Source: Gaiellaceae bacterium
GTDB lineage: Bacteria; Actinomycetota; Thermoleophilia; Gaiellales; Gaiellaceae
Direction of reading: 5' to 3'
Assembly: GCA_035546715.1 (NCBI GenBank)
Contig: DASZWI010000131.1
Coordinates: 35,465-99,464, forward strand
Length of the DNA stretch: 64,000 nt
The notes under the pieces are model-generated. The model saw nothing but the letters and a program-made list of their open reading frames with translations, was not told where the DNA came from and searched no databases. Positions 4,874 through 40,221 of this stretch are shown here, piece after piece (positions within the stretch are counted from its first letter, which is position 1; every line of letters starts with the position of its first letter). A program made the translations under genes and the position numbers.

Positions 4874-4923
4874 ACGGAGCCGGTCCGCAGGACGCGGGCC
4901 GAGGGATTGCACAACACGTTCTT

Positions 4924-4934: not shown

Positions 4935-4937
4935 AGC

Positions 4938-9835: not shown

Positions 9836-9841
9836 CTTGGT

Positions 9842-9855: not shown

Positions 9856-9893
9856 AAGGGGTAGAGCTGGGGACGGTGGCTCTCGGGGAGCCC

Positions 9894-10127
9894 TTACGGA
9901 GTGCTGCGGTTGTTCTTGTTGGAAGACGGCAGGTTGGCGATGCTCGCTCCGGCCGCGGCCCGGTTCTCCTCCTTGACGGCCTCCCAGATCTCGTGGCGGT
10001 ACACGGGGATCTCGGCGGGCGCCTCGATGCCGAGCCTCACCGTCTGGCCGACGACCTCGAGCACCGTGATGGTGACGTCGTCGCCCAGGCAGATCCGCTC
10101 GCCGGGCTTGCGGGTGATCACGAGCAT
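9894..10127 (-). CDS. csrA: Carbon storage regulator CsrA
   Basis: 77 aa. MLVITRKPGERICLGDDVTITVLEVVGQTVRLGIEAPAEIPVYRHEIWEAV is the CsrA signature. AGGAGG SD upstream. Lies between fliW and flagellin, as in Bacillus. Confidence 0.95.
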   Translation of the reverse strand: MLVITRKPGERICLGDDVTITVLEVVGQTVRLGIEAPAEIPVYRHEIWEAVKEENRAAAGASIANLPSSNKNNRSTP

Positions 10128-10621: not shown

Positions 10622-10645
10622 CAGGTTTGGCCTCCTTTCGGCCTG

Positions 10646-14489: not shown

Positions 14490-14638
14490 GTGAAGCCTAG
14501 CCCTTCCGTTGTGCCGTTCGGTTTGGCGGAGGGGGTCGGGAGGCCGACTTCGGCGGTCTCCCAGGGCTTCTGCAAAGCAGTCCGGCCTGGGGCCCCTCCT
14601 ACTGACGGCCCGTGTGATCGGCCGAGGCCGGCCGATCT

Positions 14639-16554: not shown

Positions 16555-19008
16555 TCAGGCCGCGGCGCGCTCGCGGAGCCGCTCGACGAGCCGCTTCGCC
16601 TCGCCCGACGACGGGTCGAGCGCGAGCGCGTGCTGGGCGAAGACGGCGGCGTCCTCCTCGAGCTCGCGGGCGACGGCGACCTGCGCCAGGCCGACGAACG
16701 CCCGGGCGGACGGCTGCTCGTTCGCCGAGGCGAGCCACTCGTCGGCGGCGGAGTCGATGTAGCCGCGGCGGAGGTACATGCGGGCGAGCACCTCGCGCCA
16801 GTCGTCGCGCGGGACGGCGATGGCGGCGGAGACGCGGGCGAGCAGCTCGAACGAGGCGAACTCCTGGACGCGCAGGAGCGCCTCGAGCGCCGTCGCCGCC
16901 GTCGAGGCGGCCGCTGCGGGCAGGGCGCCCGCCGTCTGGACGCCGTCGAGAGCGTCGGCCCACGCGGCGTAGAGCTGGCGGTCGGCGGGAGTCGCCGCGG
17001 CCGCCGTGCCGCTCGCGAGGGCGCTGCGCAGCGCCGCGGCGTCGCCCGCCGCGGCATGCGCGAAGAGGAGCTCGCCGGCGGCCGCCTGCGCGAGCGGCGA
17101 CTCGTCGGGGACGCGCGCCGCCGCCTCGGCGGCGTGCGCCCAGTCCTTGCCCAGCAGGTACGCCTCGGCGAGCCCGATGCGGGCGGCGTCGTTGCCCGGC
17201 TGGCGGTCGAGCACCTCGCCGAACAGCTCGACGGCGTCGGCGACGCGGCCCGCCTCCAGGCAGGCCGTCGCGGCGAGCAGGCCGGCGCTCGGCCGGTCGA
17301 GCTCGAGCGTCTCGCGCAGCTCGGCGAGGTCGGCGCCGCGGGCGACCATCAGGCCGACCGCATGCAGCACCGGTGCCACGTAGTCGGGGTGCTCGTCGAG
17401 CGCCCGCAGGTAGTAGCGCTCGGCCGCCTCGGCGTCGCCGCGCCGCTCGGCGAGCTCGCCGAGCAGGGTCAGCGCGAGGTACGTGCCCGAGCCGACGACC
17501 GACGCGTAGCGGGCCGGCGCGTCGCCCAGCTCGAGGCAGTGCAGCGCGAGGCGCTCCGCCTCGGCGAGGTCGCCCTCGTCGCGGGCGCACAGCGCCAGCT
17601 CGAAGTGGAGGTCGGTGTGGTCGGGCATCGCCGCGATGCCGATCGCGAGCGCCGCGCGGGCGTCGTCGATGCGGCCCGACTCGCGGCGGGCGAGGGCGAT
17701 GCGGCTGGCGAGGATCGGCGCATACCCGGCGGACGTCCAGTTGCCGCCCGCCTGGAGCTCGTCCCACGCGCGGTCGAAGTGCGTGGCCGCCGTCGCCGCG
17801 TCGCCGAGCATGAGGTACTCGGAGCCGAGGTTGAAGGCGTTGAACGGGCTCGGCGACTCCTGGGCCTCGAGCTCGAGCAGCTCGATGTTGCGGCGCGACT
17901 TCTCCTTCGCGCTGATGCGGTTCTTCAGGTAGCCGTAGTGGCGGATCCGGATCGTCGTCGCCTCGAAGCGCTCCGGCAGGAACGTCGGCATGTGCTGCGT
18001 CTTCTGCTCGTGGATCCGGCCCTCGAAGCGGTACGCGGGGCGGTTCCTGAAGATGCGCAGCGCGAGGTGCGTCACCGAGGTGCCCGCCTCCTCGCCGCCG
18101 GTGTAGTTCGTCTCGACGAGGTGGAAGCCCTCGCGCCAGGTGCGGCCGAGCAGCTGCCGGATCTTGGGCGCGTCCTCGGGGACGAGGTGCTCGTCGGCGT
18201 CCAGGTAGAAGAGCCAGTCGCCGGTCGCCGCGTCCAGCCCGGCGTTGCGCGCGTCCGAGAACGACCCGTTCCACGGGAAGTCGATCACCCGGGCGCCGAA
18301 GCTCTTCGCGATCTCGACCGTCCTGTCGGTGGAGCCGGTGTCGACGACGACGATCTCGTCGACGGAGTCCGCGACCGCCTCGAGGCAGCCCGGGAGCATC
18401 TCCTCCTCGTCCTTGACGATCATGCAGAGCGAGATCGTCAGGCCGGGGGTGGCCTTGGCGCCGGCGGCGACGCGGCGCGCCTTCAGGCCGAGCGCCTTCA
18501 CGCGCGGGACGAGCGGGCCGAGCAGGTGCGGGCGCACCTTCGCGCGCTTCTGCTCGCGCACGGCGGCGAGGTTCTCGCGCAGGTGCGGCAGGGTCGGGTC
18601 GAGCTTGTGGGCCGCGCGGAAGAGCGCCTCGGCGCCGCCGAGCTCGGCGAGCTCGTACACCAGGACGCCGGCGTAGTTGAGGAACACCGGCTCCGACGGC
18701 TCGGCGTCGAGCGCGGCCAGCAGCGCGTCGGCGGCGGTCGCGTAGAGGGTGGCCCAGCTGTCGCCGAACGCGTTGCGGTTCGCGTCCGCGAAGACGGCCT
18801 CGGTGATCTGCTTCCGCCCCTGGAAGACGCGCTGGGGGTCGCTCCACCCCGCCACCTCGCCGTAGAGCGCGGCGAGCGCGTCCGCGTCGCGGCGTGCGAC
18901 GGCCTGCTCGGCGTTCGCGATGGTGCGCGCGAGCAGGCGCTGCCACTCCCTCGGCGTGTTGGCGTCGCGGCGGGTTCCGGTCTCGAGGGTGGCGATGCGA
19001 AGGGCCAT
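16555..19008 (-). CDS. GT2 glycosyltransferase flanked by TPR repeats (817 aa)
   Basis: GT-A core ISLCMIVKDEEEMLPGCLEAV..VVVDTGSTDRT..YLDADEH. Long C-terminal TPR-like array. AGGAG SD upstream. Confidence 0.85.
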   Translation of the reverse strand: MALRIATLETGTRRDANTPREWQRLLARTIANAEQAVARRDADALAALYGEVAGWSDPQRVFQGRKQITEAVFADANRNAFGDSWATLYATAADALLAALDAEPSEPVFLNYAGVLVYELAELGGAEALFRAAHKLDPTLPHLRENLAAVREQKRAKVRPHLLGPLVPRVKALGLKARRVAAGAKATPGLTISLCMIVKDEEEMLPGCLEAVADSVDEIVVVDTGSTDRTVEIAKSFGARVIDFPWNGSFSDARNAGLDAATGDWLFYLDADEHLVPEDAPKIRQLLGRTWREGFHLVETNYTGGEEAGTSVTHLALRIFRNRPAYRFEGRIHEQKTQHMPTFLPERFEATTIRIRHYGYLKNRISAKEKSRRNIELLELEAQESPSPFNAFNLGSEYLMLGDAATAATHFDRAWDELQAGGNWTSAGYAPILASRIALARRESGRIDDARAALAIGIAAMPDHTDLHFELALCARDEGDLAEAERLALHCLELGDAPARYASVVGSGTYLALTLLGELAERRGDAEAAERYYLRALDEHPDYVAPVLHAVGLMVARGADLAELRETLELDRPSAGLLAATACLEAGRVADAVELFGEVLDRQPGNDAARIGLAEAYLLGKDWAHAAEAAARVPDESPLAQAAAGELLFAHAAAGDAAALRSALASGTAAAATPADRQLYAAWADALDGVQTAGALPAAAASTAATALEALLRVQEFASFELLARVSAAIAVPRDDWREVLARMYLRRGYIDSAADEWLASANEQPSARAFVGLAQVAVARELEEDAAVFAQHALALDPSSGEAKRLVERLRERAAA

Positions 19009-19015
19009 GGGTCTC

Positions 19016-20470
19016 CTAGGGGACGAGGAGGGAACGGAGGGCGGCCGGCTCGGGTGCGAGCACGCGGCGGGCGCGGAGCGGGCGGGTCGGGCCGGCGCAG
19101 ACGAACGCGTCGGCGGTCAGCTCGAGCGCGCCCGTCGCGAGCCCGGACGAGTCGGCGACGACGACGTCGGCGAGCCGGTCGGCGTCGATGTCGGACGTCT
19201 CGAGGAACGAGCCGATCGCGGCGACCGCGGCGGCCTCGTCCGAGGCGGGCAGGACGAGCGTGGTGTCGTCGTCGGGGCCGAAGGCGCCGGCGTACGCGGC
19301 GAGCGCGGGCGTCCACGTCTCGGGCCGCTCCCAGTCGGCGTCGACCGCGAGCACGACCTGGCGGGCGCCCGGGATGACCGCGGGCGCGGTGCGGCCGATC
19401 GGCGTGCGGCCGTCGAGGGCGGCGAGCCGGTCGGCGACGATCGCCGCTGCGGCAGGCCACGAGTAGCGCTCGGCGTGGGCGCGCGCGGTGGCGGCCTTGG
19501 CCGCACGCGCGTCGGGGTCGGCGGCGGCGCGGAGGGCGTCCACGAGGCCCTCGAGCTCGGGCTCGAGCAGGAACCCGCCGCCGGCGGGCTTCATCTCGCC
19601 GGGCAGGGCGCCCGGCGGCAGCGCGATGCGGCTGGACGGCAGCCGCCAGGCGCAGGCGTCCGAGGCGAACTCGTCGGTGGGGCCGCCCGCCGTCGCGATC
19701 AGCGGCTTGCCGCACGCCAGCGCCTCGAGCGCCGGGAGGCAGAAGCCCTCGCCGCGGTACGGCTGGACGACGACGTCCGCCGCGCGGTAGAGCGCGGGGA
19801 TCGCGTCGTAGTCGAGGTGCTCGTCCAGCGAGAGCAGCGCGGGCGCGTCCGGGTCGGCGCGGAGCTCGTCGATGAACGACTCCGCCGTCTGGCCGCGGTA
19901 CCACGTGCCCGAGCCGAAGCCCTTGACCACGAGGAGCACGTCGTCGTCCGCGTCGAACGCGGCGCGGTAGGCGCTGAGGAGGACGTCGATCCCCTTGCGG
20001 TAGGTCGTGCCGCCGACGAAGAGGAAGACGGTGCCGGCCCGCCGCTCGAGCGGGTGGGCGGAGCCGTCCGGCGAGAAGCGGTCGAGGTCGACCCCGTTCG
20101 GGACGACGTGGACGAGCTCCGGCGCCAGGCCGGCCGCGAGGTACGACTGCCGTGAGTACTCGGACGCCGTCCACACCTCGTCGACGCGCTCGCGGATGCG
20201 CTCGGCCCACAGGGCCGGGATCTCGCCGAACTCCCACGGCTGGTAGATCGCGAAGGGGCCGGCGGTCGGCGCCTCCCAGACGGGCGGCCAGTGCGCCGCG
20301 ACGCCCACGGCGTCGGTCGCGAGGGCGGGCGACTCCACCGGGATGCGCTCCACGGCGACGCCCAGCTGCTCGACCGCGCCGACGAGGCCGTCGTTGACGA
20401 CGGCGAGAGAATGGTCGGAGGCGAACTCGCCGCGCCACGCGCAGCGACTCGTGCCGGGGACGGCGGTCAC
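19016..20470 (-). CDS. GT4 (GT-B) glycosyltransferase with extra C-terminal module (484 aa)
   Basis: FVGGTTYRKGIDVLL..VQPYRGEGFCLPALEALACGKPLIAT is the GT4 EX7E region. The tail (aa 369-484) is shared with two other GTs. Confidence 0.85.
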   Translation of the reverse strand: MTAVPGTSRCAWRGEFASDHSLAVVNDGLVGAVEQLGVAVERIPVESPALATDAVGVAAHWPPVWEAPTAGPFAIYQPWEFGEIPALWAERIRERVDEVWTASEYSRQSYLAAGLAPELVHVVPNGVDLDRFSPDGSAHPLERRAGTVFLFVGGTTYRKGIDVLLSAYRAAFDADDDVLLVVKGFGSGTWYRGQTAESFIDELRADPDAPALLSLDEHLDYDAIPALYRAADVVVQPYRGEGFCLPALEALACGKPLIATAGGPTDEFASDACAWRLPSSRIALPPGALPGEMKPAGGGFLLEPELEGLVDALRAAADPDARAAKAATARAHAERYSWPAAAAIVADRLAALDGRTPIGRTAPAVIPGARQVVLAVDADWERPETWTPALAAYAGAFGPDDDTTLVLPASDEAAAVAAIGSFLETSDIDADRLADVVVADSSGLATGALELTADAFVCAGPTRPLRARRVLAPEPAALRSLLVP

Positions 20471-26384: not shown

Positions 26385-26998
26385 CGATGGGCTCCCTTGA
26401 GGTAGAGGTAGGCGGCGACGTCGCCGGGGTGGTAGTCGTGTCGGATTGCGACGAACGGCGTCAGCGTGCGGCAGAGGTCGAGGAGCGAGACGGGGTCGAC
26501 GTAGTACTCGCCGGGCTCCGGCGAGGGCGTCCAGCTGCTCACGGCGGTGAACGCGACGGCCTCGTCGGCGAGCGCGGTCATCGCGCGGACGAGCTCCTGC
26601 ATCTTCGCCTCGGCGTCGCCCTCGAGGAGGTAGAAGATCCCTTGGGCGAGGACGACGTCGTAGCGCTCCACGGCCGGGTCGAGATCGAGCACGTTGGAGA
26701 CGCGCAGGTCGAGACCGTGCGTCGCACGGCCCGCCTCGACCATCCGAGGTGAGAGGTCGACACCGCGGTAGACCACGCCGTCGTAGCGACGGTGGAGGTG
26801 CGCGCCGAGGTCGCCGAAGCCGCAGCCGACCTCGAGCACCCGCTTGCCGGACAGGTCCATGACGTCGCCGAGCACGCGGTAGCGGCGCTCGAGGGACTCG
26901 ACGCCCGAGGCGTCGCAGGCCCGCGGGTCGTGCCCGTAGCGGTCGACCAGTTCGTCGTAGTACGAGGCGATGCGGCCGGAGTCGGCGACGGCGCTCAT
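26381..26998 (-). CDS. Class I SAM-dependent methyltransferase (205 aa)
   Basis: Internal ATG 26998 (ATGA overlap). Motif I is VLEVGCGFGDL. ATGA overlap downstream as well. Confidence 0.75.
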   Translation of the reverse strand: MSAVADSGRIASYYDELVDRYGHDPRACDASGVESLERRYRVLGDVMDLSGKRVLEVGCGFGDLGAHLHRRYDGVVYRGVDLSPRMVEAGRATHGLDLRVSNVLDLDPAVERYDVVLAQGIFYLLEGDAEAKMQELVRAMTALADEAVAFTAVSSWTPSPEPGEYYVDPVSLLDLCRTLTPFVAIRHDYHPGDVAAYLYLKGAHR

Positions 26999-28512: not shown

Positions 28513-28513
28513 C

Positions 28514-29578
28514 TCAGCAGACGTCCGCCGGCTCGAGCGGCTTCCCCGCAGCGACCCGGCGCGTGACGGGGCGGCCTAGGATCCAGTCGAGCGCCGCGGG
28601 CGGCAAGCCGGTCGCCGGCCGCCGGAAAGCGATGTCGGCCTCCGTCAGCGACTCGCCCGCCTCGAGCGTCCGAGCCGCGACGCACGACAGGCGGTAGTCG
28701 CGGCGTCCGATGCTCTCGGAGGCGGTCGGGCCGACGACGCTCGATCCGAGGCAGGCCTCCATCGTCCGCACGGAGTCGACGAGCTCGCGCAGCTCCGCCG
28801 GATCCGCCGAGAAGCGATGGTCGGGGCCGGGCAGGCCCTTGTCGAGCGTGAAGTGCTTCTCGACGAAGCATCCGCCCACGGCGACCGACCCCGCCGCGGC
28901 GACGGAGCCCCACGAGTGGTCGCTCAGGCCGACCGGGACGCCGAACGCGGCCGCGAGCGCCGGGAGGCGACGGAGGTTCACGTCCTCGGGAGGCGTCGGG
29001 TAGGAGGAGGTGCAGTGAAGGAGCAGGAGCTCGGTGCCGCCCGCCTCCCGGAAGGCGCGGACCGCGTCGTCGATCTCGGCCAGCGTCGACATCCCGGAGG
29101 AGAGGACCGTCGGGATGCCCGTGCGCGCCATTGCGCGCACCATCGGCAGGTGGACGAGGTAGTCGGAGCCGTTCTTCAGCAGGGGCGACGAGAGACGAAC
29201 AAGCTGGTCGATCCCGGCCTCGCTCGTCGGCGTGCTGAAGAAAACGACGCCGCGCTCGTCGCAGTGCCGCTTCAGCTCGACCCACGCATCGTCGGGCAGC
29301 TCGTAGCGCTTGAACATGTCGTACTGCGCCTCGAGGACCGTCTCGCCCTGCGAGACGTACTCGTAGGTCAGCGAACGGTCGCTGAGGAAGTCCTCGGTGC
29401 GGAAGTTCTGGAACTTCACGCCGTCCGCGCCCGCGTCGGCCGCGGCGTCGATCGAGCGGTGCGCGAGGTCGAGGTCGCCGTTGTGGTTGAGCCCGACTTC
29501 GGCGGCGACGAAGCATGGCTGGCCCGGGCCGATCAGGCGGCCGGCGACCTCGAGGGGCCGGATCTCAGGCAGCTGCAC
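28514..29578 (-). CDS. pseI: Pseudaminic/sialic acid synthase (NeuB family, canonical motifs)
   Basis: GTG 29578 with a GGAGG SD 6 nt upstream. 354 aa. Motifs AAEVGLNHNGDLDLA, GLSDHSWG and VEKHFTLD, plus a C-terminal SAF domain. Confidence 0.85.
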   Translation of the reverse strand: MQLPEIRPLEVAGRLIGPGQPCFVAAEVGLNHNGDLDLAHRSIDAAADAGADGVKFQNFRTEDFLSDRSLTYEYVSQGETVLEAQYDMFKRYELPDDAWVELKRHCDERGVVFFSTPTSEAGIDQLVRLSSPLLKNGSDYLVHLPMVRAMARTGIPTVLSSGMSTLAEIDDAVRAFREAGGTELLLLHCTSSYPTPPEDVNLRRLPALAAAFGVPVGLSDHSWGSVAAAGSVAVGGCFVEKHFTLDKGLPGPDHRFSADPAELRELVDSVRTMEACLGSSVVGPTASESIGRRDYRLSCVAARTLEAGESLTEADIAFRRPATGLPPAALDWILGRPVTRRVAAGKPLEPADVC

Positions 29579-30644
29579 GGTGAACCTCCGAGTCGATCGA
29601 GGAGAGGAGAGCGGCAGCGGCGCGGTCCGCACCGCGGCCGTCGACGAGGGCCTGCCCGCGTGCGGACATGTCGCGGCGGCGCGCGGGGTCGGCGAGCAGC
29701 GCACCGACGGCGCCCGCGGCGTCGTGGAGGCCGTCGCCGAGCGCGACGCCGAGATCGTGGTCGGCGAGGGCGGCCACGTTCGGGAGCTGGTCGCGCGAGA
29801 GCGGGACGACCGCTGCAGGGGTGCCGAGCGCGAGCAACTCCCAGCAGGTGGAGCCGCCGGCGGTCACGGCGACGTCCGCCCAGGCGATCTCGTCGGACAT
29901 GCGGTCGACCCGTCCCAGGACCTCGGTGTCGTGGTGCGACGTCCCGGCTGCGGCGACGAGGCCCGGATCGGGTGCGCCGGACGCGCCGGTGACGACGCGG
30001 ACCGAGAGGGGCCGCTCGACACCGTCGAGCGCGGCCAGGGCATCGCAGTAGAGCGCGGCGGGCGCGTTGCCGCCGAGGGTCACGAGGACGCGGCGGTCGG
30101 AGGCCGAGAACGTGCGGGCGAGGCTGTCGTGCGCCTCGGCGAACTGGGGGCGGAGGAGCGCGTAGCCGGGGCCGAGCAGCAGCCTGCGGCCGCGTGCCCC
30201 GCCGTAGAGGACGTCCCTGGCGCCGAGGTTCTGGTTGAGGATCCAGCGGACCTGGCGCAAGTCGCGATCCCCGAGGTCGTCGATCGCGCCGAGCACGAGG
30301 CCCTGAGCCGCGAGCCGCTCGAAGTAGGCGGCATCGGCGCCGTAGTGGTCGACGACGAGCGCGGAGGCGCGCCAGGCGGCGCAGGCCCCGGCCGTGGCAG
30401 CGGCGTCGGCCGCGTCGAGGGCGGCGGGCGAGGCGCATGGGACGATCGCCACGGCGAACCCCTCGTCGGCCAGAGAAGCCGCCGCCGCGGTGGACGGCTC
30501 CCCGAGGACGAACCCGATTCTCATCCCCGCGCGGCGGAGCCCTTCGGCGAGCGAGCGGCAGCGCGTGAGATGCCCCGCGCCGACGGCTTCGTTGCCGTCG
30601 ACGCGGAAGGCGACGGTCGTGGCGTTCGAACCCCTAGACGGCAT
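29565..30644 (-). CDS. pseG: UDP-2,4-diacetamido-2,4,6-trideoxy-beta-L-altropyranose hydrolase-like (PseG)
   Basis: 359 aa. FRVDGNEAVGAGHLTRCRSLAEGL is the PseG N-terminal signature. GT28-like C-domain. Confidence 0.8.
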   Translation of the reverse strand: MPSRGSNATTVAFRVDGNEAVGAGHLTRCRSLAEGLRRAGMRIGFVLGEPSTAAAASLADEGFAVAIVPCASPAALDAADAAATAGACAAWRASALVVDHYGADAAYFERLAAQGLVLGAIDDLGDRDLRQVRWILNQNLGARDVLYGGARGRRLLLGPGYALLRPQFAEAHDSLARTFSASDRRVLVTLGGNAPAALYCDALAALDGVERPLSVRVVTGASGAPDPGLVAAAGTSHHDTEVLGRVDRMSDEIAWADVAVTAGGSTCWELLALGTPAAVVPLSRDQLPNVAALADHDLGVALGDGLHDAAGAVGALLADPARRRDMSARGQALVDGRGADRAAAALLSSIDSEVHRAAA

Positions 30645-31674
30645 CCCAGCTGAGGAGCTCGTCGCGCTGGATGTCGCGCTGGGCCACGCGGCCGACGAGG
30701 ACGTCGATCAGGTCGGGGGAGATGCCCGAGCCCGGACGCTTGCAGGCGAGCATGTCGCGCTCGATGCGCGTGCCGGCGGGGATCTCGGTGCCGGCGACGA
30801 CGCTCACGAAGTACAGCTCCTTCTGGCGCAGGTCCTCGGCCGACGGAACGACGGCGTGCTTGCCGAGGACGGCCTCCGCGCGGCGGATGGTGGTCACCCA
30901 CTCCTTGAACTCGTCCGGCTCGACCGCCTTCACGTGGTGGTGGCCGGGATGCGAGCCGTCGAGCGTGAGCCGCTTCTCGAGCAGCCTGGCGCCGAGCGCG
31001 ACCGCGGTGATGTCGGGGACGACGTCGCGGCTGTCGCACGAGTACCCGGTGGGCAGGCCGAAGACCTGCTCGAGGTAGGGGACGCTCCGCACGTTGATGC
31101 CGGCGTCCTCCTTCGCATGGCTGCAGTGGACGAGGACGATCTGCTCGTTGCCCTCGCTGCGGATCGCGTCGATGGCCTTCTCGATGTCGGAGAGGCGCGT
31201 CGGGCCGAGGTCGACCTGCACCGGCTTGCCGGTGCGCGCCATGTGGCGGATCAGCGGCAGGTTGCCGACGTCCCAGGAGCTGAGCTTGAAGGCTGCGAGG
31301 CCCAGCTCGACGCCCATGTCGACGCCGTCGGCGTAGTCGATCGACGCGTAGAAGATGATGTCGCGCCGGGCGCAATGGTCGCGGATCTGCTTCCACTCCT
31401 CGAGCGAGAACTCGAGGCCCTTGAACATCTCGTACATGTTCTCGGACTTCGTGCCTCCCGCCCACTCGTAGTCGTACGACACGCTCTTGTCGCTCATGAA
31501 GTGGTCGGCGCCGATGATCTGGAACTTGATCGCGTCGGCGCCGCCGTCCTTCGCGGCGTCGATCATCGCGAGCGCCGTGGCGATGTCGCCGTTCGCGGTG
31601 GTTCCCGTCTCGACGACGATGAAGACCGGATTACCGGGGCCGAGCACCCGGTCTGCGATCTGAACGTGCTGCAT
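30634..31674 (-). CDS. Divergent NeuB-family paralogue lacking the conserved metal-binding histidines
   Basis: ATG 31674 with a GGAGG SD. 346 aa. TIM barrel plus SAF domain are intact, but the motifs read ETGTTANGD, GYSCDSRD and LEKRLTLD. Confidence 0.75.
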   Translation of the reverse strand: MQHVQIADRVLGPGNPVFIVVETGTTANGDIATALAMIDAAKDGGADAIKFQIIGADHFMSDKSVSYDYEWAGGTKSENMYEMFKGLEFSLEEWKQIRDHCARRDIIFYASIDYADGVDMGVELGLAAFKLSSWDVGNLPLIRHMARTGKPVQVDLGPTRLSDIEKAIDAIRSEGNEQIVLVHCSHAKEDAGINVRSVPYLEQVFGLPTGYSCDSRDVVPDITAVALGARLLEKRLTLDGSHPGHHHVKAVEPDEFKEWVTTIRRAEAVLGKHAVVPSAEDLRQKELYFVSVVAGTEIPAGTRIERDMLACKRPGSGISPDLIDVLVGRVAQRDIQRDELLSWDAV

Positions 31675-31796
31675 CTGCGGCGCCTCCAAGGGGTGTGGGT
31701 GCGTCACCCCGCACGGACGGCAGCGATCCGTGGCCGCACGAGGGGACATCGTGCAAGCCGGGTGTTCGTCCGACGGGCGTTAGTCTTGAGCGCGCC

Positions 31797-32534
31797 GTGA
31801 CGACCGAGCCGCTGCCCGCCGACGCACGTCGGCACGTCCTTACGGCCCACCAGCCCGTGTACCTGCCGTGGCTGGGGCTCCTGCACAAGATCTGGCTTGC
31901 GCAGACATTCGTCTCGTTCGACGACGTCCAGTACCTGCCGAAGGACTGGAACAACCGGAACAAGATCAAGTCCGCGTCTGGGCCGATCTGGCTGACGGTG
32001 CCGGTGCTGCGCAAGGGATATCTCGAGAAGCCGATCCGCGAGATCGAGATCAACAACGCTGAGCCGTGGCGCCGGAAGCACTGGCGCTCGCTGGAGGGCG
32101 CCTACGCAAAGGCGCCCTACTGGGACGACTACGCGGAGTTCTTCCGCGACCTGTACGAGCGGGAGTGGCGCACGCTCGCCGAGCTGAACGAGCACGTGCT
32201 GCGCTGGCTCCTCGAGACGCTGGGGATCTCGGTGCGCTTCGAGCGCGCTTCGGAGCTCGGCCTCGAAGGGGCGAAGTCGGCGCTCGTCCTCGACATGTGC
32301 GTCAAGCTCGGGGCCGACGTCTACGTGTTCGGGGCCCTCGGACGCGACTACGCCGATGTCGAGGCGTTCCGGGCGGCGGGCGTCGAGCCGGTCTTCCAGG
32401 AGTATCGCCACCCGGAGTACCCGCAGCTGCACGGCGCGTTCGAGCCGTATCTGTCCGTGGTCGACCTGCTGTTCAACTGCGGGCCCGAAAGTCTCGACGT
32501 GATCGTCTCCGGCCAGGAGCGCACGATCCCGTGA
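31797..32534 (+). CDS. WbqC-like family protein
   Basis: GTG 31797 is chosen to leave a 122-nt divergent spacer. HQPVYLPWLGLLHKI..FDDVQYLPKDWNNRNKIK..WRRKHWRSLEGAYAKAPYW fits the WbqC-like family. Confidence 0.7.
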   Translation: MTTEPLPADARRHVLTAHQPVYLPWLGLLHKIWLAQTFVSFDDVQYLPKDWNNRNKIKSASGPIWLTVPVLRKGYLEKPIREIEINNAEPWRRKHWRSLEGAYAKAPYWDDYAEFFRDLYEREWRTLAELNEHVLRWLLETLGISVRFERASELGLEGAKSALVLDMCVKLGADVYVFGALGRDYADVEAFRAAGVEPVFQEYRHPEYPQLHGAFEPYLSVVDLLFNCGPESLDVIVSGQERTIP

Positions 32535-33208
32535 AGCCGATCTGCGTCGTCCCCGCCCGCGGAGGCTCGAAGCGGTTCCCGCGCAAGAACGTGGCGCCGC
32601 TCGCCGGCAAGCCGCTCCTCGCCTGGACGGTTGAGCCCGCGGTGGCATCCGGGCTCTTCGACGCCGTGTGGGTCTCGTCGGAGGACGAGGCGATCCTGGA
32701 GGAGGCCGAGCGCTGGGGCGGCGAGCCGTTGCGGCGCGCCGGCGACCTGGGGGGCGACCTCGTGAGCGTCGTCGACGTCGCGCTCGACGCGCTCGACCGT
32801 GTCGGAGACGGCGCCGACGCGGTCTACCTCATGCTGCCGACCTCGCCGCTCCGCTCGCCGGAGACCATCCGCCGGGCTTGGGCCCGGTTCGAGGAGAGCG
32901 GGGCGGACGCGCTGCTGAGCGTCGTGCCGCTCGACTACCCGTGCGCCTGGGGGCTCGGCCTGGATGCGGAGGGCGCGCTGCGACCCCTCGACCCCGTGGG
33001 CTACGACACGCCGCGCCAGCAGCTGACGCCCGCCTACCGTCACGACGGAGGCCACGCGATCGTCGCCGCGGAGCCCTTCCGTGTCCGGCGGGCGCTGCTC
33101 GCCGAGCGCACGGTCGCGTTCGAGGCACCGGAAGAGGAGACTGTCGACGTGGATCGCGAGATCGACCTCGCCTGGGCCGAGTTCCTGCTCGAACGGAGGG
33201 CGCGCTGA
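32531..33208 (+). CDS. pseF: CMP-nonulosonate (pseudaminic acid) cytidylyltransferase
   Basis: GTG 32531 overlaps the upstream stop (GTGA). 225 aa. ICVVPARGGSKRFPRKNVAPLAGKPLLAWT is the CTP_transf_3 signature. Confidence 0.85.
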   Translation: MKPICVVPARGGSKRFPRKNVAPLAGKPLLAWTVEPAVASGLFDAVWVSSEDEAILEEAERWGGEPLRRAGDLGGDLVSVVDVALDALDRVGDGADAVYLMLPTSPLRSPETIRRAWARFEESGADALLSVVPLDYPCAWGLGLDAEGALRPLDPVGYDTPRQQLTPAYRHDGGHAIVAAEPFRVRRALLAERTVAFEAPEEETVDVDREIDLAWAEFLLERRAR

Positions 33209-33897
33209 CCGCCGGGTCCGTTCTGGTCGTCGCCGCGCACCCGGACGACGAGGTCCTCGGCTGCGGCGGCACGATCCCGCAGCTCGTCGCGGCGGGGCGT
33301 GCCGTGCACGTCGCGATCCTCGGCGAGGGCGTCACATCCCGCTACGCCGAGCGTGAGGGCGCCGACGTTGCGCTGCTCGACGACCTCCGGGCGGACAGCC
33401 GGCGCGCGGGCGAGACGATGGGCGCCGCCGAGGTACACCTGTTCGGCCTGCCGGACAACCGGTTCGACACCGTTGCGGCCCTCGACGTGGTCAAGGTGGT
33501 CGAGGGGCTGATCGAGGAGCTCGAGCCCGAGCTCGTCTTCACCCAGCACGGCGGAGACCTCAACGTCGACCACGGCGTCGTGTTCAGAGCCGTCCTCGCC
33601 GCCACCCGGCCGATGGCCGGCCATCCGGTCAAACGGGTCTACGGCTACGAGGTCGCCTCGTCGACCGAGTGGGCGTTCGGGCAGTTCGAACCCGTGTTCC
33701 GGCCGAACACCTTCGTCGACGTGAGCCAGACCCTCGAGACGAAGGTGGCCGCGATGGAGTGCTACCGCAGCGAGCGCCGCGCCTTTCCTCACCCGCGCTC
33801 GCCCGACGCCCTGCGGGCGGCGGCTCGCCGGTGGGGCACGACGGTCGGGCTGGAGGCCGCGGAGGCCTTCCAGCTCGTTCGCTCGATCGGTCTCTAG
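33205..33897 (+). CDS. PIG-L/LmbE-family deacetylase (proposed CTG start)
   Basis: Motifs VLVVAAHPDDEVLGCGG and HGGDLNVDH. No in-frame ATG/GTG/TTG lies before the HPDDE motif. GGAGG sits 5 nt upstream of CTG 33205, which overlaps the pseF stop. Confidence 0.7.
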   Translation: MTAGSVLVVAAHPDDEVLGCGGTIPQLVAAGRAVHVAILGEGVTSRYAEREGADVALLDDLRADSRRAGETMGAAEVHLFGLPDNRFDTVAALDVVKVVEGLIEELEPELVFTQHGGDLNVDHGVVFRAVLAATRPMAGHPVKRVYGYEVASSTEWAFGQFEPVFRPNTFVDVSQTLETKVAAMECYRSERRAFPHPRSPDALRAAARRWGTTVGLEAAEAFQLVRSIGL

Positions 33898-35034
33898 CTA
33901 GAGCGCCGCGGCGAGCGCGTCGACGACGCGGTCGACGTCGGCGTCGTCCATGGCCGGGAAGAGCGGCAGCGACAGCAGGCGCGTGTAGGCGTTCTCGGCG
34001 ACCGGGAACTGGCCGGCCCGCGTCCCGAGGCGCTCGCGGTAATAGGGATGCAGGTGCACCGGGACGTAGTGCACGTTGGCGCCGATGCCGTCTGCGCGCA
34101 GCGCCGAGAAGACCGCGTCGCGTTGGCCGTCGACCTGCACGACGTAGAGGTGGTAGGCGTGGCCGACGCCGGGGCGGACGGCCAGCGGCTCGACCCCGTC
34201 CAACTCGGTCAGCAGCTCGTCGTAGCGGGCCGCGAGCGCGCGCCGACGCTCGATCCAGGCCGGGAGGCGGCGCAGCTGGCTCGTGCCCAGCGCGCACTGG
34301 AGATCGGAGAGCCGGTAGTTGAAGCCGAGCTCGACCTGCTCGTAGAACCAGGCGCCGGCGGCGGCGCGCGACCGGTGGTCGCTGTCGATGCCGTGGTTGC
34401 GGAAGCGCCTGGCGCGGGCGGCGATCTCGGGATCGGCGGTGACGACGGCGCCGCCCTCGCCGGTCGTGACGTGCTTCACCGGGTGGAAGCTGAAGCACGA
34501 GGCGTCGGCGAGCGAGCCGACCGGCGCGCCGTCCAGGTCGCCACCGATCGAGTGACAGGCATCGGAGACGAGCAGCACGCCCGCACGATCGCAGAGCTCG
34601 CGCAGCGCGCCGTACTCCGCGGGTTGGCCGGCGTAGTCGACGGCGACGACCGCGGCAGTCCGCTTGGTGATCGCGGCCGCCGCGGCGGCGGGATCCAGCA
34701 GGAGCGTGTCGGGGTCGACGTCCGCGAACACAGGCGTCGCGCCGACGTAGAGGACGGCGTTCGCGGTCGCCGCGAAGGTGATCGGCGGCAGGACGACCTC
34801 GTCGCCGGGGCCGATCCCCAGGGCGTGGTAGGCGGCGTGCAGGGCCGCGGTGCCGTTCGAGACGGCCACGGCCTCGGCGGCGCCGGCGACCTCCGCCAGA
34901 GCGCGCTCGAACTCGTCGACCCTGGGGCCGGTGGTCAGCCAGTCCGAGCGCAGCGCCTCGACGACGGCGGCGACGTCGTCGTCGTCGATCTCCTGGCGCC
35001 CGTAGGGCAGGTGACGCTGCGGCGCGACGGCCAC
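33898..35034 (-). CDS. pseC: UDP-4-amino-4,6-dideoxy-N-acetyl-beta-L-altrosamine transaminase-like (PseC)
   Basis: GTG 35034, 2 nt after the pseB stop. 378 aa. LPYGRQEIDDDDVAAVVEALRSDWLTTGP and FSFHPVKHVTTGEGG. Confidence 0.9.
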   Translation of the reverse strand: MAVAPQRHLPYGRQEIDDDDVAAVVEALRSDWLTTGPRVDEFERALAEVAGAAEAVAVSNGTAALHAAYHALGIGPGDEVVLPPITFAATANAVLYVGATPVFADVDPDTLLLDPAAAAAAITKRTAAVVAVDYAGQPAEYGALRELCDRAGVLLVSDACHSIGGDLDGAPVGSLADASCFSFHPVKHVTTGEGGAVVTADPEIAARARRFRNHGIDSDHRSRAAAGAWFYEQVELGFNYRLSDLQCALGTSQLRRLPAWIERRRALAARYDELLTELDGVEPLAVRPGVGHAYHLYVVQVDGQRDAVFSALRADGIGANVHYVPVHLHPYYRERLGTRAGQFPVAENAYTRLLSLPLFPAMDDADVDRVVDALAAAL

Positions 35035-35036
35035 GG

Positions 35037-36005
35037 CTACGCGGCCTTGGCGAGGCGCAGCGCGTCGAGCTCGGTCAGCCAGCGGTCGTTCGTGTTGCTG
35101 GAGAACTCGAAGCCGGCGGGCAGGGGCTCGCCGTCCTTCCAGTTCGCCTCGCCCCACCACTGGTGCTCGGGCTTGATCACGAACATGTCGTCGAGCTTCA
35201 CCGCATGGCGTGCCTCGTCGCTCGAGATCAGGCACTCGTGGAGCTTCTCGCCTGGCCGGATCCCCGTAACCACGATCTCGCAGCCCGGCGCGATCGCCTT
35301 CGCGAGGTCGATGACCGACATGCTCGGGATACGGGGGACGAAGACCTCGCCGCCGTGCATCGACTCGATCGCCTTGAGGACGATGTCGACCCCCTGCGGC
35401 AGGGTCAGCCAGAACCGGGTCATGCGCTCGTCGGTGACGGTCACCTTCCCGGTCTTCTTCTGCTCCTGGAAGATCGGCACGACGCTGCCGCGGCTGCCGA
35501 CGACGTTGCCGTACCGGACGCACGCCAGGCGGGTGTCCCGGCCGCCGGCGTAGGCATTGCCCTGCACGATGATCTTTTCGGCGCACAGCTTCGTGGCGCC
35601 GTAGAGGTTGACCGGGTTGACGGCCTTGTCCGTCGAGAGCGCGAGGACGCGCTCGACCCCGCAGTCGATCGCCGCGTCGACGATGTTCTGCGAGCCCTGG
35701 ATGTTCGTCTTGACGGCCTCGGACGGGTTGTACTCGCACGCCGGAACCTGCTTGAGGGCGGCTGCGTGGACGACGATGTCGACATCCTGGAACGCGCGGC
35801 GCAGGCGCTCGACGTCGCGGACGTCGCCGAGGAAGAAGCGGAGGCGCGGGTCCGAGTGGGAGCGCTGCATCTCGTGCTGCTTCAGCTCGTCGCGGCTGAA
35901 GACGATCAGGCGCCGCGGGTCGTAGCGGTCCAGCACCGTCTCCACGAATGCCTTGCCGAACGAGCCGGTGCCGCCGGTGACGAGGATGGTCTTGCCGTCG
36001 AGCAT
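35037..36005 (-). CDS. pseB: UDP-N-acetylglucosamine 4,6-dehydratase (inverting) PseB
   Basis: ATG 36005. 322 aa. MLDGKTILVTGGTGSFGKAFV..STDKAVNPVNLYGATKLCAEK is the PseB/FlaA1 signature. Confidence 0.93.
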   Translation of the reverse strand: MLDGKTILVTGGTGSFGKAFVETVLDRYDPRRLIVFSRDELKQHEMQRSHSDPRLRFFLGDVRDVERLRRAFQDVDIVVHAAALKQVPACEYNPSEAVKTNIQGSQNIVDAAIDCGVERVLALSTDKAVNPVNLYGATKLCAEKIIVQGNAYAGGRDTRLACVRYGNVVGSRGSVVPIFQEQKKTGKVTVTDERMTRFWLTLPQGVDIVLKAIESMHGGEVFVPRIPSMSVIDLAKAIAPGCEIVVTGIRPGEKLHECLISSDEARHAVKLDDMFVIKPEHQWWGEANWKDGEPLPAGFEFSSNTNDRWLTELDALRLAKAA

Positions 36006-36152
36006 GGTCACACACACCTCGGGGGTCTGTTGGGGCGCGCACGAGCCGCGCAAGGGACGCTCGCGTCATCGACCGCCTCCCGATCTTCTTGAACCGGCCG
36101 CGGCTGTGCCCCTCAAGCGAGGGCCGGCGCGGCCGACGACGGAGTCGTCCCC

Positions 36153-37937
36153 ATGTCCGGCCCCGACTCCCCGACCGAGTATCGCGCCGTCCGGCGCCGG
36201 TGGGAGCAAGCGCTGGCCGCGTCGGGCCCCGGCAGGGCCGCGGCCCGCGACGATGCGGCGGCGGCCGTCCTCGCCTACCTCGAGCGCGAGCCCGCCGAGC
36301 CGCTTCTGCTCAACGTGCTGGGCGTGCTCCTGCACGAGGCCGGCCGCAGCGACCTCGCCGTGCCGCTCTTCGGCGCTGCGCTCGAGCTCGATCCCGCGCT
36401 GCCCGCGGCCGAGGCGAACCTCGCGGCGGCCCGTGCCGCCGGTGTCGCGCCGCAGGACGACACGCTCGCCGCTCGGGTCGCCGCAGTCGTCGGCCGCGCG
36501 CGCCCGGCGACCGGGTTGACCCTCTCCGTCTGCCTGATCGTGCGCGACGAGGAGCAGCGGCTCGAGGCTTGCCTCAGGGGCGTCGCGCCCGCCGCCGACG
36601 AGATCGTCGTCGTCGACACGGGCTCGACCGACCGCACCACCGACATCGCGAGGAGATTCGGCGCGCGCCTCCTGCACGTCCCGTGGAACGACAGCTTCTC
36701 GGAGCCGCGCAACGTCGCGCTTGCGGCAGCCCGCGGGGACTGGGTGCTGTTCCCGGACGCCGACGAGCACTTCGAGCCGGCGGCTGCTCCGGCCCTGCGC
36801 GGCCTGCTCGGCCGCACCTGGCGGGCGGGCTTCCTCTTCCCGATGACGAGCCGCACCGGCGACGGCTCCACGGCGACGGTCCATCCGGCCCTGCGGCTGT
36901 GGCGGAACCGGCCGGACGTCCGCTACGCCGGGCGCGTCCACGAAAGCGTCCTCGGCAGCCTGCCGGTCGACCTCCCGGAGCGCTTCGAGCTGGTCGACGT
37001 GCCGATCGTCCACCACGGGTACGTCGAACGGACGATCGCCGAAAAGGACAAGGCACGGCGGAACCTGACGCTGCTGGCGCTCGAGCCGCCCGGGCCCGAG
37101 ACCTCCTTCAACCTCGGCAGCGAGCACCTGCGGCTCGGCGACTGGGAGCGCGCGGCCGAGCACCTCGACGCGGCGTGGCTCGCGATCTGCGGCCGCCCGG
37201 ACTGGGCTGGCGCCGGCTTCGGCTCGCTCCTCGCGCTGCGCACGGCGCGCGCCCGCCGCGAGCTGGGCCGTCTCCAGGCGGCGCGCGACCTGCTCCGGCT
37301 CGCCCTCGAGCGCTATCCGGACTACACCGACCTCGTCTACGAGCTCGCCGCCTGCGCCGCCGCGGCCGGCGAGCGCAAGGAGGCGGAGGCGCTGCTGGAG
37401 ATCTGCCTCGCGCTCGGCGACGCTCCGCCGACCTATGCGTCGACGGTCGGGGCGGGCTCCCACCTCGCCGAGGCGTTCCTGGCCGACCTGAGACGCCAAG
37501 CCGCCCGAACGAGGGATGTTCCCCCCATAAAGAGTGAGGGGGGACGGCCGATAACGGTCGAAGACGACGACGCCCGCACGGACGGGAGGGACATGCTCGA
37601 CGGTATTCAACCCAGCTCTGGCGACATCTCGACCTATGGCGCCGCGCAGCGGCTCCAGGCGACCGAGAAGGGCGCGGTCGACTTTCGCCTGGCGACCGTC
37701 CACGGCGTTCCCGCCTCGCCGCCGCCCGAGGTGCTCCGCGCGCTCGACAGCGCCGCCCGGGTCGACGACGAGCTCCGCTCGCGCGGCCTGCGCGTGTCGT
37801 TCGACGCGCAGCACGACGGCAGCGTGCACGTCGGCGTGGTCGACGAGGGCGGCGCTCTCGTCGGGGCCGCGGCCTCGCCGTCGCACGCGCTCGACGTGTT
37901 CAGCGGCGAGGTGCCGCTGGCCGACCTGTTCGCCTAG
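36153..37937 (+). CDS. GT2-TPR glycosyltransferase ORF that continues in frame into flaG (594 aa, no intervening stop)
   Basis: aa 1-~450 are paralogous to the 817-aa GT2-TPR protein (LSVCLIVRDEEQRLEACL..VVVDTGSTDRT..FPDADEH..GDAPPTYASTVGAGSHL). aa 481-594 are FlaG-like. Confidence 0.75.
   Translation: MSGPDSPTEYRAVRRRWEQALAASGPGRAAARDDAAAAVLAYLEREPAEPLLLNVLGVLLHEAGRSDLAVPLFGAALELDPALPAAEANLAAARAAGVAPQDDTLAARVAAVVGRARPATGLTLSVCLIVRDEEQRLEACLRGVAPAADEIVVVDTGSTDRTTDIARRFGARLLHVPWNDSFSEPRNVALAAARGDWVLFPDADEHFEPAAAPALRGLLGRTWRAGFLFPMTSRTGDGSTATVHPALRLWRNRPDVRYAGRVHESVLGSLPVDLPERFELVDVPIVHHGYVERTIAEKDKARRNLTLLALEPPGPETSFNLGSEHLRLGDWERAAEHLDAAWLAICGRPDWAGAGFGSLLALRTARARRELGRLQAARDLLRLALERYPDYTDLVYELAACAAAAGERKEAEALLEICLALGDAPPTYASTVGAGSHLAEAFLADLRRQAARTRDVPPIKSEGGRPITVEDDDARTDGRDMLDGIQPSSGDISTYGAAQRLQATEKGAVDFRLATVHGVPASPPPEVLRALDSAARVDDELRSRGLRVSFDAQHDGSVHVGVVDEGGALVGAAASPSHALDVFSGEVPLADLFA
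37528..37554 (+). promoter_or_regulatory. Sigma-28 promoter (exact consensus) for flaG-fliD-fliS-fliT-like
   Basis: TAAA (37528-37531), exactly 15 nt, GCCGATAA (37547-37554). Lies in a local GC dip with rare codons. GGGAGGG SD and ATG 37593 follow. Confidence 0.7.
37593..37937 (+). CDS. flaG: FlaG-like protein (114 aa, nested in the frame of the upstream ORF)
   Basis: ATG 37593 follows an SD. LRVSFDAQHDGSVHVGVVDEGGALVG..ALDVFSGE resembles FlaG. Position directly upstream of fliD, as in Bacillus. Confidence 0.6.
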   Translation: MLDGIQPSSGDISTYGAAQRLQATEKGAVDFRLATVHGVPASPPPEVLRALDSAARVDDELRSRGLRVSFDAQHDGSVHVGVVDEGGALVGAAASPSHALDVFSGEVPLADLFA

Positions 37938-37946
37938 CGGCTGCCC

Positions 37947-39359
37947 ATGTCGTCGACCGGCGCCTTCCAGCAGATCACCGGGCTCGCGTCGGGCATCGAC
38001 ACGGCCGCGATCGTCAGCGCGATGATGGCGGTCGCGAAGCAGCCCGAGGTCGCGATCCAGAACCAGATCACGGTCGAGACGGCGCGCCAGAACGCCTACC
38101 AGGCGGTGCTCGCCGAGCTGAACGACCTCACGACGTCGTACCAGGCGCTCACGGACGTGGGCACCTGGGCGGCGGTGCAGCAGGTGAGCTCGAGCGACAC
38201 CTCCGCCTTCACCGCGCAGGCGACGGGCGGCGCCGCGGCCGGTTCCTACTCCCTCTCGATCCAGAACCTGGCGCAGGCGAACCAGTACACGAGCAGCGGC
38301 GCGACCACTGCGACCGCCGACGACACGCTCAGCCTCACCGTCGGCTCCAACACGACGAACATCGACATCAAGTCGGGCGACAGCCTCGACACGATCGCCG
38401 CGCGGATCAACAACACCACCGGCGCCCCGGTCTACGCGACGATGTTCAACGGCAAGCTCGTCCTCTCGAACAAGCAGACGGGCACGGCCAACGCCGTCAC
38501 CGTCTCGACCACCGGCACGTCCGGCATCTCGTTCGCCCAGAACCAGGCGGCGCTGGACGCCAACTACACCTTCGCCGGCCAGGCGCTGACCAGCGCGACG
38601 AACGTCGTCACGAACGCGATCCCGGGCGTCACCCTCACGCTGCAGTCGGCGACGACGGGCAACGTGACGCTCAACGTCGGCGCGCCGGCCCCGGACACCG
38701 CCGGGATCACCGCGAAGCTCAACGCGTTCGTCAGCAAGTACAACTCGGTCGTCACCGACATCCAGAACCGGCTGAGCGAGCAGCCCGTCGCGATGCCGAA
38801 GTCGGACGCCGACCGGACGAAGGGTGTGCTGTACGGGGACCAGGGCCTCCAGCGCCTGCTCTCGCAGCTGCGGAACGCGTTCTCGGACACGATCACGAGC
38901 ACGACGAATCCGCCGAGCAGCTACTCGAGCCTCGCGCAGGTCGGCCTCTCCACCGGCGCGGCGGTCGGCACCGGCCAGCTGAGCGACGCGTCGATCAACG
39001 GCATGCTCACGGTCGACTCGACGAAGTTCTCGCAGGCGCTCGCCGCGAACTTCGACCAGGTGAAGGCGCTGTTCACGAACTCGACGGGCAGCTACTCGAC
39101 CGAGGGTCTCGGCCAGCGCCTGAGCGGCATCCTGAAGCCGTACACGTCGGACTCCGCCCTCGGCGGCTACCTCGACACGTCGATCGACGGCGAGACGGCG
39201 AAGATCAAGTCCCTCCAGGCCCAGGTCGCCGACTGGGACACGCGGCTGGCCCTGAAGCAGCAGACGCTCCAGGCGCAGTTCACGGCGATGGAGACCGCCC
39301 TCTCGCAGGTGCAGTCCGAGTCGTCGTCGCTCAGCTCCTCGATCGCGCAGCTCGGCTAG
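37947..39359 (+). CDS. fliD: Filament cap protein FliD
   Basis: 470 aa. MSSTGAFQQITGLASGIDTAAIVSAMMAVAKQPE and C-terminus DWDTRLALKQQTLQAQFTAMETALSQVQ. Confidence 0.95.
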   Translation: MSSTGAFQQITGLASGIDTAAIVSAMMAVAKQPEVAIQNQITVETARQNAYQAVLAELNDLTTSYQALTDVGTWAAVQQVSSSDTSAFTAQATGGAAAGSYSLSIQNLAQANQYTSSGATTATADDTLSLTVGSNTTNIDIKSGDSLDTIAARINNTTGAPVYATMFNGKLVLSNKQTGTANAVTVSTTGTSGISFAQNQAALDANYTFAGQALTSATNVVTNAIPGVTLTLQSATTGNVTLNVGAPAPDTAGITAKLNAFVSKYNSVVTDIQNRLSEQPVAMPKSDADRTKGVLYGDQGLQRLLSQLRNAFSDTITSTTNPPSSYSSLAQVGLSTGAAVGTGQLSDASINGMLTVDSTKFSQALAANFDQVKALFTNSTGSYSTEGLGQRLSGILKPYTSDSALGGYLDTSIDGETAKIKSLQAQVADWDTRLALKQQTLQAQFTAMETALSQVQSESSSLSSSIAQLG

Positions 39360-39533: not shown

Positions 39534-39929
39534 ATGAACCCCTATGTGAACGCCCGCCAGGCGTATGCCGAGTCGTCGGTCATGACGGCTTCGCGCGAGC
39601 AGCTCGTCGTCATGCTGTACGACGGCGCCATCCGCTTCCTGCGGCAGTCCGCCGAGGCGATGCGCGTCGGGAGCCGTGAGCGGAGTCGCAACCGCATGCG
39701 GCGCGCCGAGATGATCATCGACGAGCTCAACATGACGCTCGACATGAGCCACGGCGAGATTCCCGCGCGCCTGCGCTCCATCTACCTCTTCTGCAAGCGC
39801 CAGCTCATCCAGGCGAACATCGAGAGCGACCCGTCGAAGATCGACGGCGTCGTGGGCCTCCTCGCCGAGCTCCGCGAGGCGTGGGACCAGATCGCCGGCT
39901 CGAGCAGCGAGCTCGTCGCCACCGCGTGA
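39534..39929 (+). CDS. fliS: Flagellin chaperone FliS
   Basis: Internal ATG 39534. 131 aa. MNPYVNARQAYAESSVMTASREQLVVMLYDGAIRFL is the FliS signature. Confidence 0.93.
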   Translation: MNPYVNARQAYAESSVMTASREQLVVMLYDGAIRFLRQSAEAMRVGSRERSRNRMRRAEMIIDELNMTLDMSHGEIPARLRSIYLFCKRQLIQANIESDPSKIDGVVGLLAELREAWDQIAGSSSELVATA

Positions 39930-39930
39930 C

Positions 39931-40221
39931 ATGAGCTGGGAGCTGTTCGACGAGCTGGCCGCCCGCGAGGAGACCGCCGTGGCGGGCCGCCGCTGGGACG
40001 AGCTGCTCGAGATCCAGGCCGAGCGCCGCCGGGTCCTCGACGCCCTGCCGGCCGACCTCCCGCAGGAGGCGAAGCCGACCCTCGAGCGCGCGCTGGCCCG
40101 CTCCCAGGAGACCGCCGCCGTCCTGGTCGCAGCGATGGCGGAGACGAAGGGCACGATCGAGCGCCTGAGAGGCGGCCGCAGAGTCGTCGGCGCCTACCAA
40201 CGCTCGGGCCGAGCCGCGTAG
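39931..40221 (+). CDS. FliT-like small helical protein
   Basis: 96 aa. AGRRWDELLEIQAERRRVLDAL resembles the FliT ..WD.L..L...R..L.. pattern. Position after fliS. Confidence 0.5.
   Translation: MSWELFDELAAREETAVAGRRWDELLEIQAERRRVLDALPADLPQEAKPTLERALARSQETAAVLVAAMAETKGTIERLRGGRRVVGAYQRSGRAA

Follow-up and report, generated by a model that had tools for sequence, protein, structure and literature searches.

The 64,000-nucleotide stretch of DNA analysed here (the window) comes from a metagenome-assembled genome (MAG) labelled Gaiellaceae. On its plus strand, an open reading frame (ORF) of 594 codons runs from 36153 to 37937 without a stop, as a sequence-only reading of the DNA had stated. The ORF covers in turn a gene for a glycosyltransferase with tetratricopeptide repeats (the GT2-TPR gene), a short joint that contains a sigma-28 (FliA/SigD-type) promoter motif, and a putative flaG gene. 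The GT2-TPR gene is GmaR/SunS-like and has an ancestral extent of 451 codons (36153..37505, plus strand) based on Pfam, the match to GmaR, and the 100% identity of residues 1-451 of the ORF to a free-standing 451-aa protein, P0282. Pfam places the GT2 domain at residues 125-243 with TPRs flanking it on both sides. The claim that residues 1 to about 450 have a GT2-TPR paralogue in the window is borne out by a larger minus-strand ORF with extra TPRs (16555..19116), which shares 48% identity over residues 46-446; the homology stops at residue 446, and the alignment reveals a shared DADE sequence, a DxD-type motif. A search of PDB sequences gives the GmaR GT domain as the closest solved relative, with E 2.9e-28 over residues 123-308.

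GmaR of Listeria monocytogenes combines a GT2 catalytic domain with TPR repeats, the same combination found in the window protein. GmaR is the flagellin glycosyltransferase of Listeria and also acts as an anti-repressor of MogR (PMC9638930), a role to which nothing at the window locus points for the window protein. FlmG of Caulobacter is another TPR-bearing enzyme and is described as a modular flagellin glycosyltransferase (PMC7591256). Blocks of flagellar genes flank the flagellar and nonulosonic-acid sugar island that contains the GT2-TPR gene, and the neighbourhood includes flagellin genes, two NeuB genes, DegT aminotransferases, a cytidylyltransferase, and further sugar genes. Flagellin glycosylation is thus a plausible role of the gene, predicted from genomic context.

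The 3′ part of the ORF (37593..37937, plus strand; residues 481-594) encodes a 114-aa protein that had been read as FlaG. Neither this protein nor its ten close homologues match Pfam FlaG (PF03646), even at E<=10, and for the 114-aa protein NCBIfam gives no FlaG match, a profile search against PDB sequences gives no match to FlaG, and a Foldseek search of its AlphaFold2 (AF2) model against the PDB returns nothing at E<=0.001. The AF2 model has a mean pLDDT of 71, with a confident alpha-beta3-alpha core at residues 45-103 and low confidence in the N-terminal 35 residues. The ten close homologues, all free-standing, are 110-134 aa long, and nine of them start at a Met aligned to ATG 37593; the sole exception, P0124, has a 19-residue upstream extension. 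An exhaustive search with a profile built from the homologue alignment (A2) retrieved 337 proteins at E<=0.001, and in a Pfam scan of 63 profile-search sequences, 32 match PF03646 (best 1.5e-11). Genome and metagenome scans with the FlaG alignment found two and three loci, respectively. Given this transitive homology and the gene order, the 114-aa protein is accepted as a divergent FlaG; the earlier assignment stands on these two lines, with no direct match in Pfam, NCBIfam, or the PDB. The FlaG (PF03646) of Campylobacter jejuni resembles the window protein in its length of about 114 aa and its position before fliD. The described role of FlaG is in polar flagellates; in C. jejuni it binds FlhA, for which it competes with FliS-flagellin, and limits filament length (PMC11536152).

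The flaG gene lies directly upstream of fliD-fliS-fliT on the same strand, a layout that recurs in the related loci L001-L004. The filament cap gene fliD (37947..39359, plus strand) is recognised by the Pfam domains FliD_N, Flagellin_IN, and FliD_C. The fliS gene (39534..39929, plus strand; Pfam FliS, E 2.3e-37) is given the start called in L004, with its longest ORF beginning at 39372. The product of fliT (39931..40221, plus strand) scores 29.4 bits against Pfam FliT, just below the cut-off of 29.5, and is also called FliT in L002 and L004.

The joint between the GT2-TPR gene and flaG consists of a former 84-nt intergenic spacer (37509..37592, plus strand), now read as 28 linker codons. GC content in the joint dips to about 0.65, and GC at third codon positions (GC3) over 37488-37562 drops to ~0.6 from ~0.95. 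The codon ATA is used twice in the joint, whereas 12 confident genes (5,444 codons) contain none. The mean log codon frequency of the joint is -4.49, a score beyond the ranges of both neighbours, for which the minima over 28-codon windows are -3.86 (GT2-TPR gene) and -4.08 (flaG). The homologous stretch is intergenic in the related locus L002 and in three contigs of the same species (L013-L015). Judged from GC3, codon usage, and these homologous stretches, the joint is former intergenic DNA in unmodified form, and its earlier description as a local GC dip with rare codons was correct on each point.

At a GC content of about 75%, a stop codon seldom occurs, whichever frame is read. In the window lineage, and likewise in L002, the spacer is 84 nt long, in frame with flaG, and stop-free; as the spacer is a multiple of three and holds no in-frame stop, the open frame continues through it into flaG. 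L002 is the only one of four relatives tested in which flaG shares the frame of the GT2-TPR gene. Because flaG is out of frame in L001, L003, and L009, the in-frame relation of the two genes is, by this comparison, accidental.

The GT2-TPR gene closes with a stop codon in five loci of related species, four of which were aligned to the window (L001-L003 and L010). Three of the four aligned relatives (L002, L003, and L010) have TGA at the position of window 37506-37508. The DNA of L002 and L003 reads GCCGCC-TGA-AAGAGGGAT, and that of the window reads GCCGCC-CGA-ACGAGGGAT. In L001, the stop is an earlier TGA within a 35-nt insertion, and its copy of the later TGA is out of frame. The relatives' loci have a short spacer with the same promoter boxes, followed by a separate flaG gene of 110-114 aa preceding fliD, with a GT2-TPR gene of 451-466 aa; in the contigs of L001-L003, GT-TPR, a gene of 113-114 aa, and fliD accordingly stand as three distinct genes. 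The presence of TGA at the homologous codon in relatives places the ancestral stop at window 37506-37508, the codon that is CGA in the window.

The same difference exists within the species. The 451-aa protein P0282 belongs to the same 90% cluster as the 594-aa protein, and its three contigs, L013 (from SRR12170518), L014 (from SRR12170515), and L015 (from JGI 3300049586), have T at 37506, and hence TGA, with 99.8-99.96% DNA identity to the window. L014 differs from the window at a single base in 2,279 bp, base 37506. The CGA codon is present in the window and in four other contigs (L004-L007), which derive from two NCBI assemblies (GCA_964455845.1 and GCA_035547175.1) and two JGI samples (3300049581 and 3300049580). 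L004, L005, L006, and L007 differ from the window by 17, 11, 34, and 1 single-nucleotide polymorphisms (SNPs), respectively, and the linked SNPs differ among contigs. Since L013-L015 have TGA and the window and L004-L007 have CGA, the T>C change at 37506 is, on the contigs compared, a stop-loss polymorphism that segregates within the species, with TGA as the ancestral state. A stop between the two genes, which the earlier reading had named as an outcome that would refute it, is thus found in relatives and in members of the same species, and the fusion predicted by the earlier reading stands only as a product expected in carriers of the C allele; as a fixed feature of the species it does not stand.

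A sequencing or assembly error would make the open frame an artefact of a true TGA at 37506-37508. It draws on the one-base size of the difference, on the origin of the sequence in a metagenome-assembled genome, and on the TGA version in near-identical contigs. Yet CGA occurs in the window and in four contigs with mutually different SNPs, and the same random error would hardly arise five times over at a single base; this explanation is therefore rejected and is regarded as highly improbable, the least probable of those considered.

The only SNP in the linker, at 37561, is non-synonymous. Sites 37506 (C/T) and 37561 (A/G) are 55 nt apart and occur in all four combinations among the same-species contigs, which could reflect recurrent mutation or recombination. 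Site 37561 has a third state, C, in relatives of other species and lies near the expected transcript start.

The spacer harbors the motif TAAA-N15-GCCGATAA at 37528..37554 on the plus strand, in which the -35 TAAA (37528-31) and the -10 GCCGATAA (37547-54) are separated by 15 nt. The motif matches the sigma-28 consensus tested (-35 TAAA, 15-nt spacer, -10 GCCGATAA/T) at 12 of 12 positions, as previously claimed; it is unique in the 64-kb window and occurred in none of 100 shuffles. CATAAAGAGTGA and GGCCGATAACGGTCG occur without change in L001-L003 and L010, and the intervening bases vary. Invariant boxes with a drifting spacer are the pattern expected of a working promoter. The promoter boxes are kept before flaG in eight loci in all, including those of alignment A1. 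Three distant relatives (L009, L011, and L012) also have TAAA-N15-GCCGAT(A/T)N before flaG, in the form TAAA-N15-GCCGATAC in L009 (labelled Gaiellaceae), TAAA-N15-GCCGATAT in L011, and a GCCGATTA variant farther upstream of flaG in L012.

The layout of L009 and L011 has a feature of its own. At 2467-2503 of L009, the flaG promoter has a -35 TAAA that includes the GT-TPR stop TAA, and at 447-483 of L011, the GT stop TAA apparently lies within the -35 TAAA in the same layout. The flaG ATG is 7 nt beyond the -10 in both, an arrangement that predicts a leaderless or nearly leaderless flaG mRNA.

The shorter pattern TAAA-N15-GCCGAT has four sites in the window versus 0.08 expected. One is the flaG promoter; the other three, sigma-28-like sites of the form CTAAA-N15-GCCGAT[CG]A, are located at 139-166 (plus strand) upstream of flhA (ATG 237), at 4809-4836 (plus strand) upstream of a flagellin gene (ATG 4939), and at 14617-14641 (minus strand) upstream of a rod gene (ATG 14489). 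Their positions suggest that the organism uses sigma-28-type promoters for several flagellar operons, beyond the late ones. The GT2-TPR gene itself is preceded by TCAA-N15-GCCGACGA (36113..36139, plus strand), in which both boxes are kept and the spacer varies across the window and L001-L003. With three mismatches to the sigma-28 consensus, in GC-rich sequence, it may be a weak sigma-28-type promoter, and if so the GT2-TPR gene belongs to the flagellar regulon.

Translation signals for flaG follow the motif in the spacer. The predicted Shine-Dalgarno (SD) sequence GGGAGGG (37584..37590, plus strand) is invariant in alignment A1, and the start codon, ATG 37593, lies downstream of it, so the SD and start codon proposed earlier are both present, with the Met common to nine of ten free-standing homologues. 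A scan of 35900-38100 revealed no sigma-70-like or terminator-like sites, and an Rfam search gave no match.

The SigD consensus in Bacillus subtilis is TAAA-N15-GCCGATAT (PMC5200910), and yvyC(flaG)-fliD-fliS-fliT is a SigD-controlled operon in this species (PMC5540618). The window shares with this operon the gene order, the promoter class (TAAA-N15-GCCGATAT/A), and the position of the promoter, with its 15-nt spacer, directly upstream of flaG. In contrast with B. subtilis, the host, which is uncultured and has a high GC content, belongs to the Thermoleophilia (MAGs labelled Solirubrobacteraceae or Gaiellaceae), its FlaG is too divergent for Pfam, and an extended upstream ORF encloses the promoter in one of the alleles. 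From the invariant boxes in a variable spacer, the motif is very probably a working late promoter of flaG-fliD-fliS-fliT, which upholds the proposal that flaG, fliD, and fliS can be expressed from a promoter internal to the ORF.

Several points weigh against this interpretation and its extension to the population. The end of the SD is only 2-3 nt from ATG 37593, which is a tight spacing. No fliA/sigD gene was found among the window ORFs scanned, in which the only sigma factor seen is of the extracytoplasmic function (ECF) type (58083-58760). Promoter activity, the start site, and the presence of a sigma-28 gene in the genome are all inferred. The C allele is common (five of eight same-species contigs seen), which is compatible with neutrality yet leaves room for a benefit; these contigs come from few related sampling projects, and such counts are not allele frequencies.

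The distribution of the fusion bears on whether it is maintained by selection. The exact 594-aa protein has been deposited publicly from a MAG under the name "glycosyltransferase". Only one 90% cluster spans the full 594-aa length, and it also includes the unfused 451-aa form; the closest relatives outside it are 451-461 aa long and cover 76% of the 594-aa protein. Protein and profile searches found no other GT-TPR-FlaG fusion. P0043 was rejected as a second fusion, as it has 95% query coverage but lacks the FlaG part. In P0146 (455 aa, another assembly), in-frame pieces of GT-TPR and of the FlaG C-terminus alternate with arginine-rich out-of-frame stretches, and the protein contains 'RPIT', the translation of the -10 box, consistent with the same kind of locus with frameshifts; it looks like a frameshifted assembly, an over-called ORF, or a real pseudogene. 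Within these searches, GT-TPR-FlaG is not a conserved architecture.

An adaptive account holds that the stop-loss is kept since a GT-TPR-FlaG protein is useful, for example by bringing the glycosyltransferase to FlhA, where FliS-flagellin docks. It gains some ground from the occurrence of the C allele in five of eight same-species contigs on both 37561 backgrounds, from an intact GT part in which the within-species SNPs are all at third positions, and from the finding that, in C. jejuni, FlaG is an FlhA-binding protein in competition with FliS-flagellin (PMC11536152). A long tether of ~65-70 residues could also be formed by the first 35 residues of FlaG, modelled with low confidence, together with the 29-residue linker, if both are flexible. 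These points are set against an architecture that is present in no other lineage, an in-frame relation that is not kept among relatives, a linker that resembles raw intergenic DNA with ATA used twice, a sole linker SNP (37561) that is non-synonymous, and a stop allele that persists in the same species. The adaptive account is very improbable. A selected function for the fusion is unlikely, since the architecture is absent elsewhere and the linker is unmodified intergenic DNA, and there is a similarly small chance that selection keeps the stop-loss allele through docking of a flagellin glycosyltransferase at the FlhA export gate by its FlaG module. If such docking were true, glycosylation would be coupled to flagellin export, and free FlaG would come from the internal sigma-28 promoter, giving two products with nested start sites from one locus. 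A fusion designed to tie the glycosyltransferase physically to FlaG is left without support, with a stop between the genes in relatives and in the same species, flaG in frame in one of four relatives, and no other fusion found.

The stop-loss could alternatively be a sign of decay, in which the GT2-TPR gene is at an early stage of pseudogenisation because the larger paralogue (16555..19116) makes it dispensable. Two points fit such decay: stop-loss alleles are usually mildly deleterious, and the window holds a paralogue (48% identity) that has additional TPRs. The gene itself, on the other hand, retains 451 codons without a frameshift or internal stop, and all three of its within-species SNPs fall at third codon positions. 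Compared with L002, differences by codon position number 47/30/120, the third position being the richest, and the codon changes comprise 98 synonymous versus 69 non-synonymous. Because the SNPs are all at third positions and the divergence from L002 is concentrated there, the gene does not look like a decaying pseudogene, and early pseudogenisation is very improbable, somewhat more so than a selected fusion.

The explanation that is strongly favoured is that the native sigma-28 promoter of flaG-fliD-fliS-fliT, located in an ancestral 84-nt spacer, has been enclosed in an ORF through a stop-loss allele. A T-to-C change at 37506 would have converted the GT2-TPR stop from TGA to CGA in part of the population of an uncultured soil actinobacterium, such that the frame stays open across the promoter, SD, and start codon of flaG and closes at the stop of that gene. 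Sigma-28 RNA polymerase should still initiate a few bases past 37554, near 37561, and ribosomes should still start at ATG 37593, yielding free FlaG, FliD, FliS, and FliT as in strains that keep the stop. FlaG is therefore most likely still made on its own by this mechanism. Transcripts of the C allele that begin upstream of the GT2-TPR gene would encode the GT-TPR protein with a 143-residue tail, composed of 29 linker residues and FlaG, and carriers of the C allele may thus synthesize the 594-aa GT-TPR-linker-FlaG protein. This fusion is most likely a tolerated by-product, and the allele that specifies it would be near-neutral. As in known stop-loss (read-through) alleles, a one-base change of a stop merges in-frame neighbours on the same strand. 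Unlike in other stop-loss chimeras, the spacer taken into the ORF brings with it a full promoter, an SD, and a start codon, both alleles segregate in one species, and flaG should stay independently expressed.

The surrounding flagellar region provides additional observations. On the minus strand, the gene order is fliW-csrA-flagellin, with fliW at 10139-10645, csrA at 9894-10127 (Pfam CsrA, E 2.1e-23), and a flagellin ORF at 9017-10036 with an ATG near 9834. Two AAGGAGG-like motifs, of which one is located at the SD, lie in the leader of the other flagellin gene (4840-4938, ~100 nt). This gene order and the leader motifs resemble the CsrA/FliW control of hag in Bacillus. The region 26995-36065 is an island of sugar-biosynthesis genes of the kind typical for flagellin glycosylation with nonulosonic acids (pseudaminic/legionaminic type) and includes two NeuB, a GNAT-DegT fusion, WbqC, PIG-L, a cytidylyltransferase, DegT, and a dehydratase/epimerase. 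The 723-aa ORF at 33898-36069 on the minus strand was rejected as a further fusion: gene calls in L004 place an epimerase/dehydratase of 322 aa and a DegT of 378 aa in separate frames, and the over-extended frame illustrates the length that spurious ORFs can reach at this GC content. Another minus-strand ORF of 1,197 codons (22867-26460) has a GT2 domain only at residues 810-1017, and its N-terminal 800 residues have no Pfam match at the threshold used.

The two database entries of 594 aa, HVV58515.1 and HVW18238.1, differ by one residue, yet they carry different family labels, Gaiellaceae for one and Solirubrobacteraceae for the other, which means that one or both of the MAG classifications cannot be relied on. 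Their public annotation as a 594-aa "glycosyltransferase" means that flaG is missing from the genome annotation. Where GC content is very high, the loss of one stop can let an ORF absorb an entire adjacent gene along with the promoter of that gene. The coexisting alleles provide a natural experiment on the addition of a FlaG tail to a flagellin-modifying enzyme, with no sign of an effect here. A divergent family of small proteins is linked to FlaG by this locus, and the sigma-28 flaG-fliD-fliS-fliT arrangement known in Bacillus would extend to uncultured Thermoleophilia.

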